Virus genome (UHGV): UHGV-0230172
Reading direction: 5' to 3' (one strand)
Source: a virus
Length of the DNA: 15,951 nt
Below are positions 4,468-15,631 of this stretch, piece after piece. Numbering within the stretch: the stretch's first letter is position 1; each line of letters starts with the position of its first letter. The position numbers and the translations under genes were made by a program. The notes beneath the pieces were generated by a model that ran no database searches, had not been told where the DNA came from, and worked only from the letters and a program-made list of their open reading frames with translations.

Positions 4468-4646
4468 TTCTTCCCACTCCGCCACATCGCATTCAGATAT
4501 TTGTTGTCATTAACAGAACCGAAACTATTTCTCTTAAGCAATTCCTCTCTCGATGGCATTGGCTTTACGCGCTGGCGAATAATCATTTCTGCCGGAAGAA
4601 TGCCGGGATTGTATGCAAGTCCTCTCATGGTAAATTCCTCAGTCAT
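4464..4646 (-). CDS. Hypothetical small protein
   Basis: Start placed at the ATG at 4646 (MTEEF...), just inside the upstream gene's stop; an alternative ATG at 4628 has AGGA 7 nt upstream. Start uncertain. Confidence 0.4.
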
Positions 4647-4935
4647 TACTGATAGCGCCATAGCGTGATCGGTAATTACGCAGGCGCGGGTCGATATATT
4701 CAGGGAATTTGTCTATTGTCGCTTTTCGCAACGGTCTCATTGCTGTTTCGTTTGTTCGGTCCTTCTCATCTTTTAACGCGAGTTGTATATCGCGTCGGTA
4801 CATCCGTTCTGCTTTTGTTTCTGGTGGCAGATCAATAAACGTGTCGAAAATGTTTTTGATATTTTCCAGCACCTCCGCCTTGGAGCTACCGGAGCAATTG
4901 CGCGGGTCATCCGCACCATACTGAGGCGCTGGCAT
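4639..4935 (-). CDS. Hypothetical protein
   Basis: 98 aa; ATG at 4935 preceded by AGGAGA. No family recognised. Confidence 0.55.
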
Positions 4936-4948
4936 GATTTTCTCCTGA

Positions 4949-5428
4949 TTAAATTGCGTGAATAGCGTGACGAGGGAAGGGGAGAGTTACTGGTTCCTCG
5001 TCTGGGTAGATAGGTTTGTTATGTTTGTGCCACTCGACATGACATGACTTGCAGAGCCACATCACATCGGTTGGTTTGCTGTAGTCGCAGTGGTTCGCCT
5101 GTGGTTTACATTCTGATCCGCAGCACTCACATTGTGGTGGTCGGATTAGCTTACCGTCGCGCAAAAAATTACCCACGATGATGTGGGCTTTTCTTTTCCA
5201 TGGGTTGCTCTGAATGAACCGCTTTTTGGCTGCGTTACACCGTTCTCTGCCGCGTTCCGATGATTGATATTCTCTCCTTGCTGATACTCGATGTGGCAAT
5301 CCCGCGCGCTCTTTGTCGTATTCAGCCAGGCAAGCCCGGCAAGCGGCAGTTAATCCATCTCTGGATGCTCTTCTGATTTGAAAGTCCCTTTCTTCCTTCT
5401 GTTGATGGCATCTTGAGCAGATTTTCAT
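4949..5428 (-). CDS. Cys-rich zinc-finger protein with HNH-like C-terminal motif
   Basis: 159 aa; N-terminal CSRC ... CRAC; C-terminal CECCG ... ANHCDY ... WLCKSCHVEWH resembles the HNH zinc-finger nuclease motif. AGGAG 7 nt upstream of the ATG. Confidence 0.55.
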   Translation of the reverse strand: MKICSRCHQQKEERDFQIRRASRDGLTAACRACLAEYDKERAGLPHRVSARREYQSSERGRERCNAAKKRFIQSNPWKRKAHIIVGNFLRDGKLIRPPQCECCGSECKPQANHCDYSKPTDVMWLCKSCHVEWHKHNKPIYPDEEPVTLPFPRHAIHAI

Positions 5429-5437
5429 ATTCAGCTC

Positions 5438-5908
5438 CTAGAACGGAATATCCGAATCGTCGAAGTTCATAGGTGGTTCGCTGTGATTTCCATGCTGCTG
5501 ATGTTGCTGTCTTTGTTGATGACCGTTATTTCGCTGAGGTGAAGACTGTTCATTGCCTCCTTGCTTGCCACCAAGCATTTGCATGGTTCCACCAACGCCT
5601 ACGATAACTTCGGTAGTGAACCTATCCTGTCCGCTTTGATCCTGCCATTTTCTTGTCCGTAATTTGCCTTCAAGATAAACCTCAGAGCCTTTTCGCAGAT
5701 ATTCGCTGGCAATTTCTGCCAGTTTCCCGCTCATTACCACGCGGTGCCACTCCGTCTGCTCCTTTTGCTCTCCAGTTTGCTTATCACGCCATTGTTCTGA
5801 CGTGGCAACTGTAAGGTTTGCAAATGCCGTTCCTGATGGTGAATAGCGCACCTCAGGATCTTGGCCTAATCTACCGATAATGATTACGCGATTAACTCCA
5901 CGTCCCAT
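5438..5908 (-). CDS. ssb: Single-stranded DNA-binding protein
   Basis: [26 protein letters not shown] ... TEWHRVV ... GQDRFTTEV ... GGTMQMLGG and C-terminal DDSDIPF tail closely parallel E. coli SSB. Start set at the ATG at 5908 (GGAGA upstream), not the track's upstream start. Confidence 0.92.
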
Positions 5909-6419
5909 TTTTATTTCTCCTGCGAGTAATCCCTGCCTCAGCATCCTCTTTCCTGTGAAGTGATGCGTGCTCGGATATGGTAAGAAGTTGAAGGTTAGAA
6001 GGGTGGTTATTAAGTTTATTTCTATCTTTGTGGTGTACTTGCTCGTTTGGATTTAATCGCCTTCCAATCAGTGATTCCATGACAATTACATGCTCAGTGC
6101 GACCCTTGTGAGCACCCCGTGTGAATTCCTTATATCCCGCGCTATTTATCCTAAACCCTATGGCAGTTTTATCAGCTTTCATGAGCTTTGCAGCACTTAT
6201 ATTCCTCTTCCACTCTTCGCTAAAGAGTCTTTTCTTCCCTTTATTCTTCCCAAGCCTACCGTCACTTGCAGCCATGCGAACTCCATCAGTTCTATTTCGC
6301 AATACTCCAGCTTTCTTGCACTGATGCCTGACGGTTGATTTTGGAATTCCGGTAATTAAAGAAACCTGAGGAATGCTCATGCCAGAGGCGTAAAGCTCAA
6401 CTGCGCTTCTGCTTGCCAT
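5892..6419 (-). CDS. HNH endonuclease with N-terminal helix-turn-helix region
   Basis: 175 aa; canonical HNH motif [28 protein letters not shown]; sits between the annealing protein and ssb, overlapping the ssb start by 17 nt. Confidence 0.85.
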
Positions 6420-7127
6420 TTATGCCGCCTGTTTTAGCTCGTTAACTCTGATGTTCATTACCTGAACGCATTTAGCCTGCGCCTCCTCGTTGCCAGCCAT
6501 TAATTGCCAGTCACGCTGATAACGCTCGATGAGTTTTTTCTTATCAGTTTCTGTTGACGCATAATCGCTGAAGTCTTTCAGGATTTGCTCGCAGTCAACC
6601 GATGGAGATTTCTGGTTGGTATTTTCTGGTGATGGTTTGTTATCTGATGCTGGTATTGCCCATCCCGGCAGCGATGGAGGGAACCAGTAAAATCCTGTTC
6701 CATCCTTGAGTTTTGCCCTGTGCCATCCCTGCTTTTTATCGAGAGATGTTTGTGCGAAACCTTCCTCAAGGTTATACAGATACCGACCGATTCCCCACTG
6801 AACGGCAGCGCGCTTCATTGCACCGGAACGACCACCTTTGACGGCTTCTACCTGCGTGTTTTCAGCAGCATCCCATTTGGTTACCCATTCGGAATCAATC
6901 TTTATTGATATGCCGCATTCAACGCCGCCGTTGTTGGGAATATCGCGGTATTCATTGCGCCATCCTGCTTTGCCGCAAACATCGTCCAGGCGTTTCATGA
7001 TTGCCCGGTTCGTGACATAAGCCAGCACCATAGCCCACACTTTGCCATCGCGTGTTTTACCGCTTTGCTGTATTCGCCATTCGATATCTTCAGGGCTGAA
7101 TGGCTCATCGAATTTATTCAAATCCAT
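6420..7127 (-). CDS. Single-strand annealing recombinase, Rad52/Sak-like
   Basis: 235 aa; motif GGRSGAMKRAAVQWGIGRYLY resembles the conserved core of Rad52/22-family phage annealing proteins; occupies the position of bet in lambda. Family assignment from memory. Confidence 0.6.
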   Translation of the reverse strand: MDLNKFDEPFSPEDIEWRIQQSGKTRDGKVWAMVLAYVTNRAIMKRLDDVCGKAGWRNEYRDIPNNGGVECGISIKIDSEWVTKWDAAENTQVEAVKGGRSGAMKRAAVQWGIGRYLYNLEEGFAQTSLDKKQGWHRAKLKDGTGFYWFPPSLPGWAIPASDNKPSPENTNQKSPSVDCEQILKDFSDYASTETDKKKLIERYQRDWQLMAGNEEAQAKCVQVMNIRVNELKQAA

Positions 7128-7135
7128 AATTCACC

Positions 7136-7306
7136 TCAGAATGGACACGGCCCAAGGAAATAACGCTGATTTAATACTTCGACTCGAGACAAATTAAGGC
7201 ATACCCGCATTCCTTCGCGGTCGCCATTATGGCGATACCAGAGAGCTTTCTGCGTGTACATACGTCTCTGTAACTTGCTCTCCTTCACTGTGGTTGCAAG
7301 TGACAT
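7136..7306 (-). CDS. Small ORF (56 aa), hypothetical
   Basis: Below the track cutoff; ATG at 7306 preceded by GAAGGAGAT; its stop sits 8 nt upstream of the annealing-protein ATG. Overlaps the 7227..7385 ORF in another frame. Confidence 0.3.
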   Translation of the reverse strand: MSLATTVKESKLQRRMYTQKALWYRHNGDREGMRVCLNLSRVEVLNQRYFLGPCPF

Positions 7307-7385
7307 GAATATCTCCTTCGTTACCGATTAATTCTTTCATCTGACGAATGAATTCTTCGTCTGACCAGTTATCTGTAAAACTCAT
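7227..7385 (-). CDS. Small ORF (52 aa), hypothetical
   Basis: Below the track cutoff; ATG overlaps the stop of the Kil-like ORF (ATGA). Acidic; no family recognised. Confidence 0.3.
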   Translation of the reverse strand: MSFTDNWSDEEFIRQMKELIGNEGDIHVTCNHSEGEQVTETYVHAESSLVSP

Positions 7386-10164: not shown

Positions 10165-10881
<717 letters not shown>

Positions 10882-10969: not shown

Positions 10970-11179
<210 letters not shown>

Positions 11180-11218: not shown

Positions 11219-11274
11219 ATCAAATTAAACCACACCTATGGTGTATGCATTTATTTGCATACATTCAATCAATT

Positions 11275-11320
11275 GTTATCTAAGGAAATACTTACATATG
11301 CAACTTACAAGTACTCGCAA
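11275..11320 (-). promoter_or_regulatory. pRE-like cII-activated promoter overlapping the cII start
   Basis: Minus strand reads TTGC-GAGTAC-TTGT-AAGTTGC-ATATGTAAGTAT; lambda pRE has TTGC-N6-TTGC-N7-ATATGTAAGTAT with identical spacing. The repeats lie in cII codons 2-7. Confidence 0.45.
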
Positions 11321-11576
11321 GAAAGCGAATGCAATTACAAGCAACATCCTGAATCGAATTGCTGTACGTGGTCAGCGAAAGGTTGCCGACGCGTTAGGGA
11401 TTAATGAATCGCAAATTTCGCGATGGAAAGACAGCTTTATCCCAAAGATGGCCATGCTTCTGGCTGTGCTGGAATGGGGTGTTGAAGACGAGGAGTTGGC
11501 GGAACTGGCTAAGCAAGTAGCCAGAATGCTGACAAAAGAAAAAGCCCCGAAGAACGGCGAATTCTTCGAGGCCTGA
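11298..11576 (+). CDS. cII: Transcriptional activator cII (divergent from lambda)
   Basis: Start at the ATG at 11298 (TAAGGAAATACTTACATATG leader matches lambda); HTH and C-terminal region [42 protein letters not shown] parallel lambda cII; N-terminus and C-terminal tail differ. Confidence 0.85.
11534..11572 (-). terminator. Possible oop-like antisense terminator at the cII 3' end
   Basis: Plus 11548..11568 forms CGAAGAA-CGGCGAA-TTCTTCG; on the minus strand it is followed by GGGCTTTTTCTTTT. Position matches the lambda oop terminator, but the T-tract is offset and the stem is short. Confidence 0.3.
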
Positions 11577-11610: not shown

Positions 11611-11757
11611 ATGACAAAACAACTCAGTCCTTACCAGGACAAAATTCACAAACACATACTACGTGATCGCTTCCTGTCCAGCTTCAAGCAGCCTGGTCGA
11701 TTCCGGGCTGAGTTGGAAAAAGTGAAGCTGATGCAGAAGGAGAAAGGTCATGAGTAA
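11611..11757 (+). CDS. Small ORF (48 aa) between cII and O
   Basis: Below the track cutoff; AGGAG 6 nt upstream of the ATG; basic peptide [48 protein letters not shown]; its stop overlaps the O start (ATGAGTAA). Confidence 0.4.
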
Positions 11758-12610
11758 TCTTGCAACCGTAACACATTTAAGGCCTTCACAACGGCCTGTG
11801 GAGCGTCGTGTGGCAGAAGTTGAAGATGGTTATACCCGTCTTGCAAATGCCCTGTATGAAGAGCTTATCGGCGCAGATTTAACGAAAAATCAGAGCAAGG
11901 TTGCCCACGCCATATGCCGTAAAACATACGGCTACGGTAAAAAGATGGATCGCATCTCTGATAGTCAGTTAGCTCAAATTACCAGGCTGCCAAGACAGAA
12001 GGTAAACAAGGCCAAGAATGAGCTTATCGCGATGAAGGTTATCCTTCGCGAAGGCCAGCAAATCGGGCCTAACAAGAACATCGAGGAATGGCAAATCGAA
12101 GGGTGTCACTACTCTGGTGATAATGTCACTGCATTGGTGACAAAAAGTGTCACCAAAACGGTGACAGCGCTGTCACCAAAACAGGGACACACAAAAGAAA
12201 CTATTACAAAAGAAAAAAGAAATAATAAAAACACTATGTCCGAAAGTGTTCGGACGGAGTGTGAAAAATCACCTGACCGTCACGAAGAAACCGACAAGGC
12301 ATTCGAGGAAATATTCTGGTGTGCAGGCATGCGGAAAGCCGGGAAGAAAAACGCAGCTTCGGCATTCAGAACACAGTTCAGGGAATGGCGTAAAACTACC
12401 AGGGGTACGGCAAGCGAGTTTGCCACGATGCTGGCAGAAGACATCGCATGCAGGAATGGTAAGCAGTTCGGATTCGACAGGTTGTTACCATCGAGCTACC
12501 TGAACGGTCAACGCTGGAACGACGAGAAGCCAGAAACTATTCAACCACAATCCAAACCATCATCCGCAATCACCGTATCGAAAACTGGCTACGTGTTTTT
12601 CGACAGGTGA
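11750..12610 (+). CDS. O: Replication initiator, lambda O-like N-terminal domain with unrelated C-terminal domain
   Basis: N-terminal half ([56 protein letters not shown] ... GPNKNIEEW) parallels lambda O; ori-like iterons and AT-rich tract lie inside the gene; C-terminal 120 aa do not resemble the P-binding domain of lambda O. Confidence 0.88.
12103..12234 (+). repeat. Origin of replication: iteron cluster plus AT-rich tract inside the O gene
   Basis: About four spaced copies of dyad half-sites TGTCAC(C)/GGTGA(C/T)A between 12103 and 12177, followed by ACACAAAAGAAACTATTACAAAAGAAAAAAGAAATAATAAAAACAC, nearly identical to the AT-rich region of ori-lambda as I recall it. Confidence 0.7.
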
Positions 12611-12613
12611 ACC

Positions 12614-12721
12614 ATGAAATCAAAAATCAAATCGCTACTGGTCGCTGGTTATAACCACGGCTGGTTAAGTATTTCGTTTGTCGATTTCTGGTTTAAAAAT
12701 CTCAATCTGAGGGAATCATGA
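12614..12721 (+). CDS. Small hydrophobic ORF (35 aa) between O and the primase-helicase
   Basis: Below the track cutoff; AGGTGA upstream of the ATG; stop overlaps the primase-helicase start (ATGA). MKSKIKSLLVAGYNHGWLSISFVDFWFKNLNLRES. Confidence 0.25.
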   Translation: MKSKIKSLLVAGYNHGWLSISFVDFWFKNLNLRES

Positions 12722-14598
12722 CGCCAAGTGAACTCAGCGACCTGCTTTGGTCGCAGGTTGACAGGGTGGCTCCGCACCTGTTGCCAAACGGCAAAAAAGA
12801 GGGGCATGAGTGGGTTGCCGGTAACGTCAACGGTGACAAGGGAAACAGCCTTAAGGTCAACCTTAGCGGCAAGAAAAAATGGGCTGATTTCGCTGAGGGA
12901 GACGGCGGTGACATGCTTGATTTGTGGATGGCATGTCGTGGGATTAACCTGCATCAGGCTATGCAGGAAGCGAAAGCATTTCTCGGTATCAAGGATGACG
13001 ATCACCATTTCGATGCCAGACGTGAGAAGAAATTCTCCAGACCTGACCGCAAGAAAATCGCCCGCTACGTTACCAGAACAGAATCCCATCTTGAGTACCT
13101 GCAATCGCGTGGCATATCTCCAGAAATCGTAAAGCGCTACGAGGTTGTCAGCGGCAAGGTGTGGAATGGAGAGCGAGAACTGGATGCTCTGGTGATTCCG
13201 TACAAACGCGATGGTGAGTTGTTGCAGGTCAAGCGAATCAGCACTGAGCGCCCGGACGGGAAGAAAGTCATTATGGCAGAAGGTGATTGCGAACCTTGTC
13301 TGTTCGGATGGCAGGCTCTGGACGCTGGCGTGAGGGCGGTTGTACTTTGCGAAGGCGAAATTGATTGTATGAGCTATGCGCAATACGGCATCTCGGCGTT
13401 ATCCGTGCCGTTTGGTGGCGGGAAAGGCGCTAAGCAACAGTGGATTGAGTTTGAGTATCACAACCTCGACAGGTTTGAGGAAATATTCATCTCGATGGAC
13501 GTTGATGATGTTGGTCGTGAAGCCGCAAGGGAAATCGCAAGCCGACTCGGTGAACATCGTTGCCGTCTTGTTACTCTGCCGTACAAGGACATCAACGAAT
13601 GCCTGATGAACGGTGTTACCGAGGATGAAATCTGGCAGTACATCGGCACGGCATCCTACTTCGATCCTGAAGAACTCTACAGCGCGCGAGAGTTTTACCA
13701 GGACACTATCAACGCTTTCTACGGCAAGCAGCAGTATCTGTTTAATCCACCGTGGGAATCTCTGGCAGATAAATTCCAGTTCCGTGAGGCAGAGTTGACG
13801 CTGGTCAATGGTGTGAACGGTCACGGAAAAACGGAGGTTGTCGGGCATATGGCACTTGAGGCAATGCGTCAGGGTGTGAAGACGTGCATCGCGTCACTTG
13901 AGCTGAAGCCTGGTATTCTCCTTAAGCGCCTTACCCGTCAGGCGACGTGCTGCAAGATGCCGCCAGTGCTGGAAATTGACTCTGCATTTAAATTTTATGA
14001 CGAAAGACTTTGGGTGTTTGGCCTGACCGGAACGGCGAAAGCCGACAGGCTGATCGAAATATTCGACTACGCTCGCCGCCGATACGGGATCCAGTTATTC
14101 ATCATCGACAGCCTGATGAAATGTGGCATAGGCGACGATGACTATAACGGGCAGAAAGCATTTGTTGACTCGATTTGTGACTTCAAAAACAAAACAAACT
14201 CCCACGTCATTCTCGTTACTCACTCGCGAAAAGGAGACAGCGAAGAAAAACCAACCGGGAAAATGGACGTAAAAGGCTCTGGAGCGATAACAGACCTGAC
14301 AGACAACCTTTTCATCATCTGGCGTAACAAGGCTCGCGAGAGAGCGTTACAGAGAGTTCAGAGTGGTGAAAAGATGTCAGAGAAGGACGAACAGCTACTG
14401 GCATCTCCGGCATCTGTTTTAATGCTCGAAAAACAACGTAACGGCGAAGGTTGGGAAGGTGGTGTCCCGTTGTTCCTTGACGAGCAATCGCACCAGTTCC
14501 TGCAACTTGAATCAGGATCTCCATATAGCTACATCGCCAATATGCCGAAATCGGAATATGACGAGGCGTGGCGACAGGAAAACGTGACGGAGTATTAA
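12718..14598 (+). CDS. Bifunctional DNA primase/helicase (TOPRIM domain plus DnaB/RecA-fold helicase)
   Basis: 626 aa; TOPRIM signatures VVLCEGEIDCMSYAQYG and FISMDVDDVGRE; helicase Walker A LVNGVNGHGKTE, Walker B LFIIDSLMK, then VILVTHSRK. Occupies the position of lambda P. Confidence 0.9.
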   Translation: MTPSELSDLLWSQVDRVAPHLLPNGKKEGHEWVAGNVNGDKGNSLKVNLSGKKKWADFAEGDGGDMLDLWMACRGINLHQAMQEAKAFLGIKDDDHHFDARREKKFSRPDRKKIARYVTRTESHLEYLQSRGISPEIVKRYEVVSGKVWNGERELDALVIPYKRDGELLQVKRISTERPDGKKVIMAEGDCEPCLFGWQALDAGVRAVVLCEGEIDCMSYAQYGISALSVPFGGGKGAKQQWIEFEYHNLDRFEEIFISMDVDDVGREAAREIASRLGEHRCRLVTLPYKDINECLMNGVTEDEIWQYIGTASYFDPEELYSAREFYQDTINAFYGKQQYLFNPPWESLADKFQFREAELTLVNGVNGHGKTEVVGHMALEAMRQGVKTCIASLELKPGILLKRLTRQATCCKMPPVLEIDSAFKFYDERLWVFGLTGTAKADRLIEIFDYARRRYGIQLFIIDSLMKCGIGDDDYNGQKAFVDSICDFKNKTNSHVILVTHSRKGDSEEKPTGKMDVKGSGAITDLTDNLFIIWRNKARERALQRVQSGEKMSEKDEQLLASPASVLMLEKQRNGEGWEGGVPLFLDEQSHQFLQLESGSPYSYIANMPKSEYDEAWRQENVTEY

Positions 14599-14627
14599 AT
14601 GACCATCTACATCACTGAGCTAATAAC

Positions 14628-14658
14628 AGGCCTGCTGGTAATCGCAGGCCTTTTTATT
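14628..14658 (+). terminator. Putative rho-independent terminator downstream of the primase-helicase
   Basis: AGGCCTGC-TGGTAATC-GCAGGCCT stem-loop (14628..14651) followed by TTTTTATTTG. Confidence 0.5.
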
Positions 14659-14674
14659 TGGGGGAGAGTAAATC

Positions 14675-14824
14675 GTGGTTGAGTTGATTTTCTCTGCATT
14701 GAGGCTTCTCGGTGCTCTGTGGATGGTGGCGACGTTCATTGTGGTTGCTGGCTGTTTTGTCCGGTTGGTAGGCGAAGGTAAAGACCTGGTGGGTGTGCTT
14801 TTCGGTAGCATTTTCCTTGGGTGA
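14675..14824 (+). CDS. Small hydrophobic ORF (49 aa), possible membrane peptide
   Basis: Below the track cutoff; GTG start preceded by GGGGGAGAG; VVELIFSALRLLGALWMVATFIVVAGCFVRLVGEGKDLVGVLFGSIFLG is mostly hydrophobic. Confidence 0.3.
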   Translation: MVELIFSALRLLGALWMVATFIVVAGCFVRLVGEGKDLVGVLFGSIFLG

Positions 14825-14897
14825 TTATCGGTGTTATGCCTGTCGCTGTAGCAAAAATGGCGTGGCGTTTTGTGAGTTGAACTGAGGGTAAGTATCG

Positions 14898-15182
14898 ATG
14901 GACGAATCAAGAAAGCAGTTTGAAGAAAGTTGGTTGCGACGTGGAGGCGAATCATCAGAACTTATCCGTTATCCTGAAAATCACCATGAAATTGGCAGTG
15001 GTGATATTGGTGGTCAATACGTGATGGACGATGTTCAAGGCCACTGGCAAACGTGGCAGGCATCGCGAGCAGCTATTGAAATTGAGTTGCCTGTATGGTT
15101 TGTCAGTGATGCTATTGCTGTGTACGACCGTGACGATATCGATGAATCCATCCGCGCCGCTGGAATCAAAGTGAAGGAGTAA
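14898..15182 (+). CDS. Hypothetical nin-region protein
   Basis: 94 aa; GAGGG upstream of the ATG; lies directly before ninB (3-nt gap). No family recognised. Confidence 0.6.
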   Translation: MDESRKQFEESWLRRGGESSELIRYPENHHEIGSGDIGGQYVMDDVQGHWQTWQASRAAIEIELPVWFVSDAIAVYDRDDIDESIRAAGIKVKE

Positions 15183-15184
15183 CG

Positions 15185-15631
15185 ATGAAGCAAATATACA
15201 TGCTTCGCAACGAAGAAATCAGAAACAACGCCATAGACGCAATACTCTCACTTCCCATCGACGACAAGTCACCTCACGAAGTCCACGTTAGAGAACCCAA
15301 ACGCAGCAAAGCGCAGAATGACCGTATGTGGCCGATGCTGAACGATGTTTCGCGTCAGGTGCTATGGCATGGTCAACGGCTGGAACCGGAAGACTGGAAA
15401 GACCTGTTCACTGCCCTGTGGCTTAAGACCAAAAAACTAGAGCAACGAAGTGTGCCTGGTATCGACGGTGGCGTTGTCATGCTTGGCGTGCGTACCAGCA
15501 AAATGCGAAAGGCCAGCATGACTGAGCTTATCGAAATCATGTTCTGGTTCGGCTCAGAGCGCAACGTGCGGTGGAGCGATGACTCCCGGAGAGAGTATGA
15601 ATGGTCACAACGAAAAGGGATGGCTGCATGA
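15185..15631 (+). CDS. ninB: NinB (Orf-family recombination protein)
   Basis: 148 aa; SKAQNDRMWPMLNDVSRQVLWHGQRLEPEDWKDLFTA ... WSDDSRREYEWSQRKG parallels lambda NinB (SLDQNRKLWACLGDVSRQVEWHGRWLDAESWKCVFTA ... WSDEARLALEWKARWG). Confidence 0.9.
   Translation: MKQIYMLRNEEIRNNAIDAILSLPIDDKSPHEVHVREPKRSKAQNDRMWPMLNDVSRQVLWHGQRLEPEDWKDLFTALWLKTKKLEQRSVPGIDGGVVMLGVRTSKMRKASMTELIEIMFWFGSERNVRWSDDSRREYEWSQRKGMAA

Follow-up and report, generated by a model that had tools for sequence, protein, structure and literature searches.

A lambda-type origin, a chimeric O initiator and a T7 gp4/Twinkle-family primase-helicase in place of P in the lambdoid phage genome UHGV-0230172

How can replication start at a lambda-type origin when the gene that should supply P is absent? 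Lambda P is a loader that hijacks the host helicase DnaB, while in the virus genome UHGV-0230172, a stretch of 15,951 nucleotides (nt) analysed here in full and called the window, a phage-encoded helicase-primase occupies its place. The replication module in question (11750-14598, 2849 nt) comprises an O-type initiator gene that carries the origin, a small open reading frame (ORF) of 35 amino acids (aa), and the gene for a 626-aa primase-helicase of the T7 gp4/Twinkle family. Judged by its sequence, it is a replication module of the ES18/epsilon34 type, which is real, common among lambdoid phages and already known, having been described by Casjens and colleagues. The comparisons below show that the initiator is chimeric, an N-terminus and origin of the lambda O type being joined at an A-rich linker to a different and widespread C-terminal family. 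By analogy with related systems we propose, with a probability of roughly 0.65, that the phage's own ring primase-helicase, recruited by the C-terminal domain of O, would replace the delivery of host DnaB by P at this origin.

The lambda-like half of the module is readily recognized. Within the 286-aa O protein (gene at 11750-12610, + strand), residues 20-114 (11807-12091, +) form the N-terminal origin-binding domain, which matches the Pfam family Phage_rep_O (PF04492) over its full length (E 1.2e-37) and TIGR01610, phage_O_Nterm, at E 1.7e-30 and 105 bits against a cut-off of 45.5. Its identity to the lambda O N-terminus is about 53% by tblastn, a figure measured between the lambda domain and loci whose O N-terminus is 98-100% identical to that of the window. 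Four 19-bp palindromic iterons of the pattern TGTCAC-N6-GGTGACA lie next to it inside the gene (12104-12122, 12124-12142, 12148-12166 and 12171-12189); the pattern gives eight strand-matches within these 86 bp (12104-12189) and one elsewhere, with 0.31 expected by chance in the window. The start-to-start spacing of 20, 24 and 23 bp is exactly that of the annotated lambda iterons, but the iteron sequence is unlike lambda's. The iterons are followed by an A-rich tract (12190-12239, GC 17.5%), the presumed DNA-unwinding element, which doubles as coding sequence for the linker between the two domains of O. A stretch of about 45 nt, reaching from iteron 4 (right half) across the tract, has the same sequence in the lambda origin. 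Immediately to the right is an inverted repeat of 14 nt with 86% complementarity (12231-12262), and lambda ori has a palindrome at the equivalent place. Because spacing and A-rich tract are shared and the iteron sequence is not, the origin is lambda-like in geometry and unwinding element with a different recognition sequence, which fits an O N-terminus only about 53% identical to that of lambda. The lambda-like N-terminus, iterons and AT-rich tract described in the initial annotation are thus borne out.

The A-rich origin linker is also the mosaic junction between the two parts of O, and megablast matches from phages with other O N-termini start at window position 12177 or 12226 (query positions 428 and 477). 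The module in its full length of 2849 nt is 98.8% identical to Sf101 and mEp043, as is the O gene taken separately at the DNA level, and 91% identical to SEN22; from the origin linker on, phi24B, Min27, several Stx2a phages, epsilon34 and g341c carry the cassette at 88-98% identity. The same cassette (O C-terminus, 35-aa ORF and primase-helicase) is found in 296 of 5,426 complete E. coli genomes.

What lies beyond the linker is a four-helix domain (aa ~176-258; 12275-12523, +) belonging to a large family without a name. The domain search proposed in the initial annotation gave no Pfam match for the O C-terminus and placed it in PHROG families of replication initiators (phrog_33384/270). An AF2 model built from a 90-sequence alignment has four helices, with a predicted local distance difference test score (pLDDT) of 83-90 in the core, and its BFVD matches are the C-terminal parts of phage proteins of the replisome-organiser type. 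The lambda O C-terminus had been claimed to be replaced here, and indeed it found nothing in the window below E 2 by tblastn, while the 90-sequence domain profile aligned with lambda O by hhalign only over 16 columns of the linker with a probability of 11%. This last test has limited power because it compares a profile with a single sequence: a scan of viral contigs with the lambda O C-terminus returned copies 99-100% identical only, which did not permit a lambda-type profile.

The domain is widespread. Among 1.84 billion representative proteins, its profile detected 24,623 clusters at E ≤1e-3 and 2,871 at E ≤1e-10, mostly proteins of 240-330 aa that carry the domain in their C-terminal half. 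In 101 of the best matches it was joined to N-termini of the families DUF1376 (19), HTH_36 (16), DnaD_N (6), Phage_rep_O (5) and DUF6291 (5), the remainder having other families or no Pfam match. A word-indexed protein search with the 124-aa O C-terminus retrieved short or partial near-identical proteins only, and a search with a six-sequence alignment of it retrieved 118 diverse, short proteins which served for the structure model. Two proteins consisting of the domain alone (P0061 and P0051) have only small unannotated phage ORFs as neighbours. The replisome-organiser initiators (DUF1376, HTH_36, DnaD_N, Phage_rep_org_N) resemble the window's O in having a helical domain of the same kind after a DNA-binding N-terminus; they differ in being a heterogeneous set whose C-terminal domain has no curated model and whose partner genes vary. 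Since partner genes vary in this way, and since some primase-helicases follow initiators without the domain, the O C-terminal domain is best regarded as a C-terminal module common to initiators in general.

The second protein of the module, the primase-helicase (12718-14598, +), belongs to a cluster of 5,632 sequences at 90% identity and is labelled "DNA primase/helicase" or "toprim domain-containing protein" in GenBank. Pfam recognizes Toprim_2 at aa 209-296 (E 3e-12), corresponding to the TOPRIM core (13342-13605, +), and AAA_25 at 28 bits, just over the cut-off, whereas DnaB_C at 23.9 bits stays under it; the PHROG match is phrog_239 (1.4e-171). The firm evidence for membership in the T7 gp4/Twinkle family is direct sequence homology and not these marginal Pfam scores. 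In a phmmer search of the PDB sequences, aa 192-539 align with residues 138-507 of T7 gp4 at 6e-23, and the same segment matches Twinkle at 6.5e-14. The TOPRIM motifs correspond closely between the window protein and T7 gp4 (EGEID/EGEID, MDVDD/FDMDE and LPYKDINEC/LPCKDANEC), and the helicase domain of superfamily 4 (SF4, the DnaB/gp4 type; aa 355-594, 13780-14499, +) has a Walker A motif GVNGHGKT, aligned with SGSGMGKS of T7 gp4, and a Walker B motif LFIIDS. In 28 homologues of 69-94% identity the EGEID, DxD and KD(I/A)N residues of the TOPRIM domain, the Walker A GxGK and the Walker B IDS are invariant; within Walker A this applies to G365, N367, G368, G370 and K371, the following Thr/Ser not being among the invariant columns. 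A moderately confident AlphaFold model of the monomer from a shallow alignment (mean pLDDT 65, predicted template modelling score 0.40) has Twinkle and T7 gp4 as its best PDB folds in Foldseek (~3e-20), and it also matches the zinc-binding and RNA-polymerase domains of Aquifex DnaG (4.8e-12). Formal searches therefore found both the TOPRIM and the helicase domain, and the protein is built on the T7 gp4 plan as had been proposed.

The N-terminal domain (aa 1-90; 12718-12987, +) is predicted to be a ribbon plus helices of the DnaG/gp4 type from which the four zinc ligands have gone. It is modelled as strands and helices with a pLDDT of 83-91, and positions 27-155 of the TIGR01391 dnaG model, which we take to include the zinc-finger region, align with aa 26-143. 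The earlier remark that an obvious N-terminal zinc finger is missing proved correct: residues 1-100 include one Cys only, without any Cys/His cluster, and each of 27 homologues agrees with the window protein in this. A distant Chryseobacterium homologue retains CxxC...CxxC, and the invariant residues W32, W55 and F58 fall in stretches that can be aligned by eye with its CxxC pairs. Few parts of the protein are as well conserved as its first 100 residues, and the domain looks like a zinc-less remnant of the ribbon. The DnaB N-terminal domain (PF00772) has no Pfam match in the 626-aa protein; by contrast, it is clear, together with DnaB_C, in the neighbour genes of the Microbulbifer relatives discussed below.

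Two further features of this protein deserve mention. Its C-terminal tail (...ANMPKSEYDEAWRQENVTEY; aa ~585-626, window 14470-14598) is acidic with an aromatic last residue and is conserved in the homologues, where A607, N608, M609, Y614 and V623 are invariant. It resembles the polymerase-binding tail of T7 gp4 and the tails of SSB proteins, so that it may serve for the docking of a protein of the host replisome. The "P" protein of phi24B (968 aa; locus L001, 3496-6402) consists of the primase-helicase and a 342-aa intein with Hint and LAGLIDADG domains, which interrupts the P-loop of Walker A after GHGK and before T and has the classic end junction ...HN|T, and intein-bearing copies also occur at loci L045, L054, L073, L079, L088 and L089.

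The primase-helicase had been taken for the gene next to O. The identity of the 626-aa protein stands, but a conserved 35-aa ORF (12614-12721, +) intervenes. It starts 3 nt past the O stop codon, is preceded at 5 nt by a Shine-Dalgarno-like AGGTG, and its end overlaps the primase-helicase start as ATGA, so that the three genes have the spacing predicted for translational coupling. The ORF has a PHROG family of its own (phrog_21848, 4.4e-26) with the consensus MKS.IK.LLIAGYNHG.LS..FV.YWF.K.DLR, and its protein sequence is preserved between enterobacterial genera in which the genes on either side have 52-80% identity. The ORF occurs in all 80 of the close IMG/VR loci, in 14 of 15 loci from Enterobacterales, where one copy is degraded, and in the phages CharmingMan and Fraca, the Fraca copy being unannotated. 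We consider the 35-aa peptide a candidate loading or assembly factor, as good a candidate as the O C-terminus itself. At locus L018 (5450-5944) a 164-aa ORF with an HNH-like motif (HRLV...NHINGDKSDN...) lies between the 35-aa ORF and the primase-helicase, and it is inserted also at loci L021, L031 and L066; judged by eye, it looks like a free-standing homing endonuclease gene.

No homologue of lambda P or DnaC was found in the window, and for P this agrees with the initial annotation. The best tblastn match of lambda P has an E of 0.11 and lies inside cII, no P-family Pfam or PHROG match occurred among the ORFs scanned, and no DnaC-like coding sequence was detected in the window. Close relatives inherit the cassette as a unit. 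Among the IMG/VR loci, each of the 80 in which the C-terminal domain is at least 98% identical has the 35-aa ORF and then the primase-helicase in the same order, behind three kinds of N-terminus: the window type, a type 98% identical to lambda, and a non-O type with a helix-turn-helix (HTH). The scan of viral contigs with the domain alignment yielded nothing but copies of 98-100% identity, and diversity was supplied by a genome scan. Here the primase-helicase follows in 15 of 15 loci from Enterobacterales species (domain 52-99% identical), again behind several kinds of N-terminus. Fraca and CharmingMan combine a DnaD-like N-terminus with the O C-terminal domain and the primase-helicase, and the pairing is repeated farther afield: a Chryseobacterium prophage has it with a domain of 31% identity, and Vibrio phage 1.116.O with a primase-helicase of 60% identity and a domain match at E 4e-13. 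A mirror control gave the reciprocal picture, in that P, and never the primase-helicase, follows at all 76 loci that have a lambda-type O C-terminus and sufficient DNA downstream, their N-termini being 47-100% identical to that of lambda. Such strict linkage in close relatives fits an adaptor role for the O C-terminus.

Taken together these data suggest the following scheme, which draws on lambda biology and on the properties of the gp4 family. O would, as in lambda, multimerise on the iterons and melt the A-rich tract. The phage ring helicase-primase would then assemble on the opened DNA in place of a host DnaB delivered by P, recruited by the O C-terminal domain, by the 35-aa peptide or by both, or else loading by itself. 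The phage ring would unwind the DNA and lay primers, which host DNA polymerase III would extend. As the phage supplies its own helicase-primase, initiation should not need host DnaB and DnaC, and probably not DnaG. That the phage would supply both helicase and primase at the origin, as the initial annotation suggested, is a reasonable view given the conserved acidic residues of the TOPRIM domain and the conserved Walker motifs. A more far-reaching version, in which the O C-terminus and the 35-aa peptide would form an uncharacterised loading system, placing a zinc-less primase-helicase on a lambda-type origin and freeing this common prophage replicon entirely from host DnaB, DnaC and DnaG, is tentative and we regard it as rather improbable.

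Several points weigh against the scheme we favour. The strict linkage is equally explained by physical adjacency, and linkage of adjacent DNA is no proof of contact. Beyond the close relatives the partner changes: in Microbulbifer and a gammaproteobacterial metagenome-assembled genome (domain 46-48% identical) the downstream gene encodes a full DnaB with N-terminal domain and DnaB_C; in Actinobacillus, Haemophilus and Pseudomonas phage Skulduggery (37-48%) it is a DnaC/IstB-like loader; in Vibrio phages PVA1 and D65 (41-44%) it is a weak P-like loader (phrog_109, 2-3e-4); and several loci from Vibrio and Alphaproteobacteria (33-44%) have neither a helicase nor a loader gene that could be recognised. 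Conversely, Pseudomonas phages 5371 and CF3a have primase-helicases 39-43% identical to that of the window behind initiators without a match to the domain profile. At locus L098 (Pseudocitrobacter faecalis, 4473-7324) a domain of 66% identity is paired with a primase-helicase of about 92% identity, on the assumption that P0147 from this species is the protein encoded there, and with a closely similar 35-aa ORF in which 2 of 35 residues differ. This locus points to recombination between O and the downstream genes, and any interface between the O C-terminus and the primase-helicase must tolerate much change. Rings of the gp4 type are moreover able to load on single-stranded DNA unaided. The loss of the zinc ligands could mean that priming has been lost, which is the main uncertainty on this side of the scheme, and in the searchable literature we found no experiments on how the module works. 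Of the proposal that a novel O C-terminus acts as adaptor, the linkage to the primase-helicase in close relatives is thus retained, but the domain is not novel, having some 24,600 clusters, and its association with this kind of partner is broken in distant relatives in both directions. A specific contact between the O C-terminal domain and this primase-helicase is plausible on present comparisons.

The varying partners could indicate that the O C-terminal domain is not a dedicated adaptor and has a job that is independent of the partner and shared by many phage initiators, such as oligomerisation, binding the unwound DNA or keeping it open, or contacting a host factor, while the gp4-like ring would load by itself at the opened A-rich tract, perhaps with assistance from the 35-aa peptide. 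This is possible, yet we find it doubtful, since the downstream neighbours of the domain, where identified, are always DnaB-family helicases or their loaders, a pattern which fits helicase recruitment with a changeable specificity (loci without a helicase or loader neighbour are uninformative on this point). The linkage in Enterobacterales is strict as well, with 95 of 95 loci, and the O C-terminus takes the position of the half of lambda O that classical genetics identified as contacting P, so that contact with the helicase system is to be expected there. Some domain-bearing initiators without a recognisable adjacent helicase or loader gene are found at L007 (Vibrio phage D65) and L113-L118, and they match the "O-only" lambdoid modules of PMC12315714.

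Recruitment by O of a ring that both unwinds and primes, which we prefer, has also to be set against the idea that the protein is a helicase only, its primase half being a relic as in animal Twinkle and host DnaG providing the primers as with P22 gp12. The four zinc ligands are indeed gone in every enteric, Vibrio and Pseudomonas homologue examined, with CxxC...CxxC retained in a Chryseobacterium homologue; PMC3610141 reports animal Twinkle to be without primase activity, lost through changes in the primase domain, and P22 gp12 works with DnaG according to Wickner (1984), as cited in PMC8022706. We nevertheless hold this to be unlikely, because the acidic TOPRIM residues aligned to T7 gp4 are invariant and the N-terminal 100 residues, including W32, W55 and F58, rank with the most conserved of the protein. 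Nor was PF00772, the domain on which DnaG docks, found in the primase-helicase. It is more improbable still that the origin fires with host DnaB brought directly by O and that the primase-helicase acts at a later stage, for example in fork restart or in rolling-circle or recombination-dependent replication. That O homologues may suffice is suggested by the 34 of 314 lambdoid phages which encode an O homologue only, with neither helicase nor loader (PMC12315714), and by the several relatives of the C-terminal domain that have no such gene next to them. In the present module, however, the primase-helicase sits exactly at the position of P or gp12 in other lambdoid modules, appears translationally coupled to O, and is inherited with the O C-terminus in every close relative; the P-loop intein and the upstream HNH gene, moreover, target the primase-helicase as is typical for essential replication genes.

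The arrangement can be placed among known systems. It is the same module as in ES18, where the C-terminal domain is 96.8% identical in gp59 and the primase-helicase 93.9% identical in the product of gene 61, with gene 60 between them; over ES18, epsilon34, g341c, Sf101 and mEp043 these values are 96.8-100% and 93.9-99.7%. The difference from ES18 and epsilon34 is confined to the O N-terminus and the type of iteron, as their N-terminus is 94% lambda-like (PMC2629481) while that of the window is about 53% lambda-like and goes with an iteron sequence of its own. The epsilon34 paper already identified a replication region like that of ES18, comprising a putative helicase and an O whose N-terminus is lambda-like (PMC2629481), an O homologue with a "nonhomologous primase-helicase" is described in PMC10307801, and other non-O/P types occur in the replication regions of Stx phages (PMC8044961); a Nature 2026 paper mentioning ES18 contains nothing on the replication proteins. 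With lambda the module shares the O N-terminal family, the origin inside the gene, the 20/24/23-bp iteron spacing, the A-rich tract of about 45 nt, the palindrome to the right of it and the position after cII; it differs in a C-terminal domain not detectably related to lambda's and in lacking P and ren. The gene 18/gene 12 pair of P22, present also in Sf6, L and the Eru2 and Eru3 types of Stx phages, similarly consists of an O-like initiator followed by a phage helicase of the DnaB family. P22 gp12 is, however, of the DnaB type with a DnaB N-terminal domain and relies on host DnaG (Wickner 1984, again as cited in PMC8022706), whereas the helicase of the window is of the gp4/Twinkle type, fused to TOPRIM and without that N-terminal domain. 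T7 gp4 and Twinkle have the same order of N-terminal ribbon, RNA-polymerase/TOPRIM domain, linker and SF4 helicase and are the best fold matches, but the window protein is only about 22-27% identical to them and has lost the Cys4 zinc site. Unlike T7, which starts from transcription-primed origins, the temperate phage studied here encodes no DNA polymerase in the window and has an origin-binding initiator as partner of its primase-helicase.

The module is surrounded by the early genes of a mosaic lambdoid phage or prophage, with cI (10165-10878, - strand), cro (10979-11179, +) and cII (11238-11576, +) on the left and ninB (15185-15631, +) on the right. The mosaicism is typical, as at most 37% of the window is covered by any one phage record, the best partial matches being Sf101, Sf6 and mEp043. 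At the 3' end of cII the minus strand contains a strong terminator-like hairpin (11542-11574) with 14 pairs and a T-run, at the place where lambda has its antisense oop RNA; Rfam detected no family in the window. Between cII and O lies a 48-aa ORF (11611-11757, +; Pfam DUF2740, 8.9e-29) whose 3' end overlaps the O start codon. It belongs to the ES18/epsilon34-type early-right segment, is a "hypothetical protein" in mEp043 and is missing from the phi24B arrangement, and the name "tail protein" given to its family (phrog_1913, and also in RefSeq) is implausible in an early-right operon. On the other side, 30 nt past the primase-helicase stop, a G+C-rich hairpin with a T-run (14628-14651, +) is a terminator-like site at the right border of the replication module; in mEp235 a "terminator" is among the features beneath the matching stretch, which covers 55% of the query. 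The region between primase-helicase and ninB (14599-15184) is an HK022-like segment, with 98.5% identity over query positions 64-528 (window ~14623-15087), and contains a 94-aa ORF (14898-15182, phrog_343). A minus-strand ORF of 111 aa (14620-14955) was rejected as a gene because it is of low complexity, rich in Pro, Thr and Ser, and without family matches.

For a specialist of lambdoid phages nothing here will come as a surprise. The module nevertheless drives the replication of many prophages of E. coli, Shigella and Salmonella, including the Stx2 phages phi24B and Min27, whose records call the primase-helicase gene "P". It has nothing in common with lambda P, and because of this the lessons of the lambda O-P system, namely the sequestration of DnaB, the competition with DnaA and DnaC and the lethality of P, should not be carried over to phages like phi24B and Min27. 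The lambdoid phages also offer a natural experiment in which origins of one lambda geometry work with the loader P in some phages, with a DnaB-type helicase in others and with a gp4-type primase-helicase in yet others. If the O C-terminus and the 35-aa peptide do act as a loading system, the domain family as a whole would amount to an all-purpose module for "helicase-system docking" in phage initiators, with a target that can be changed.

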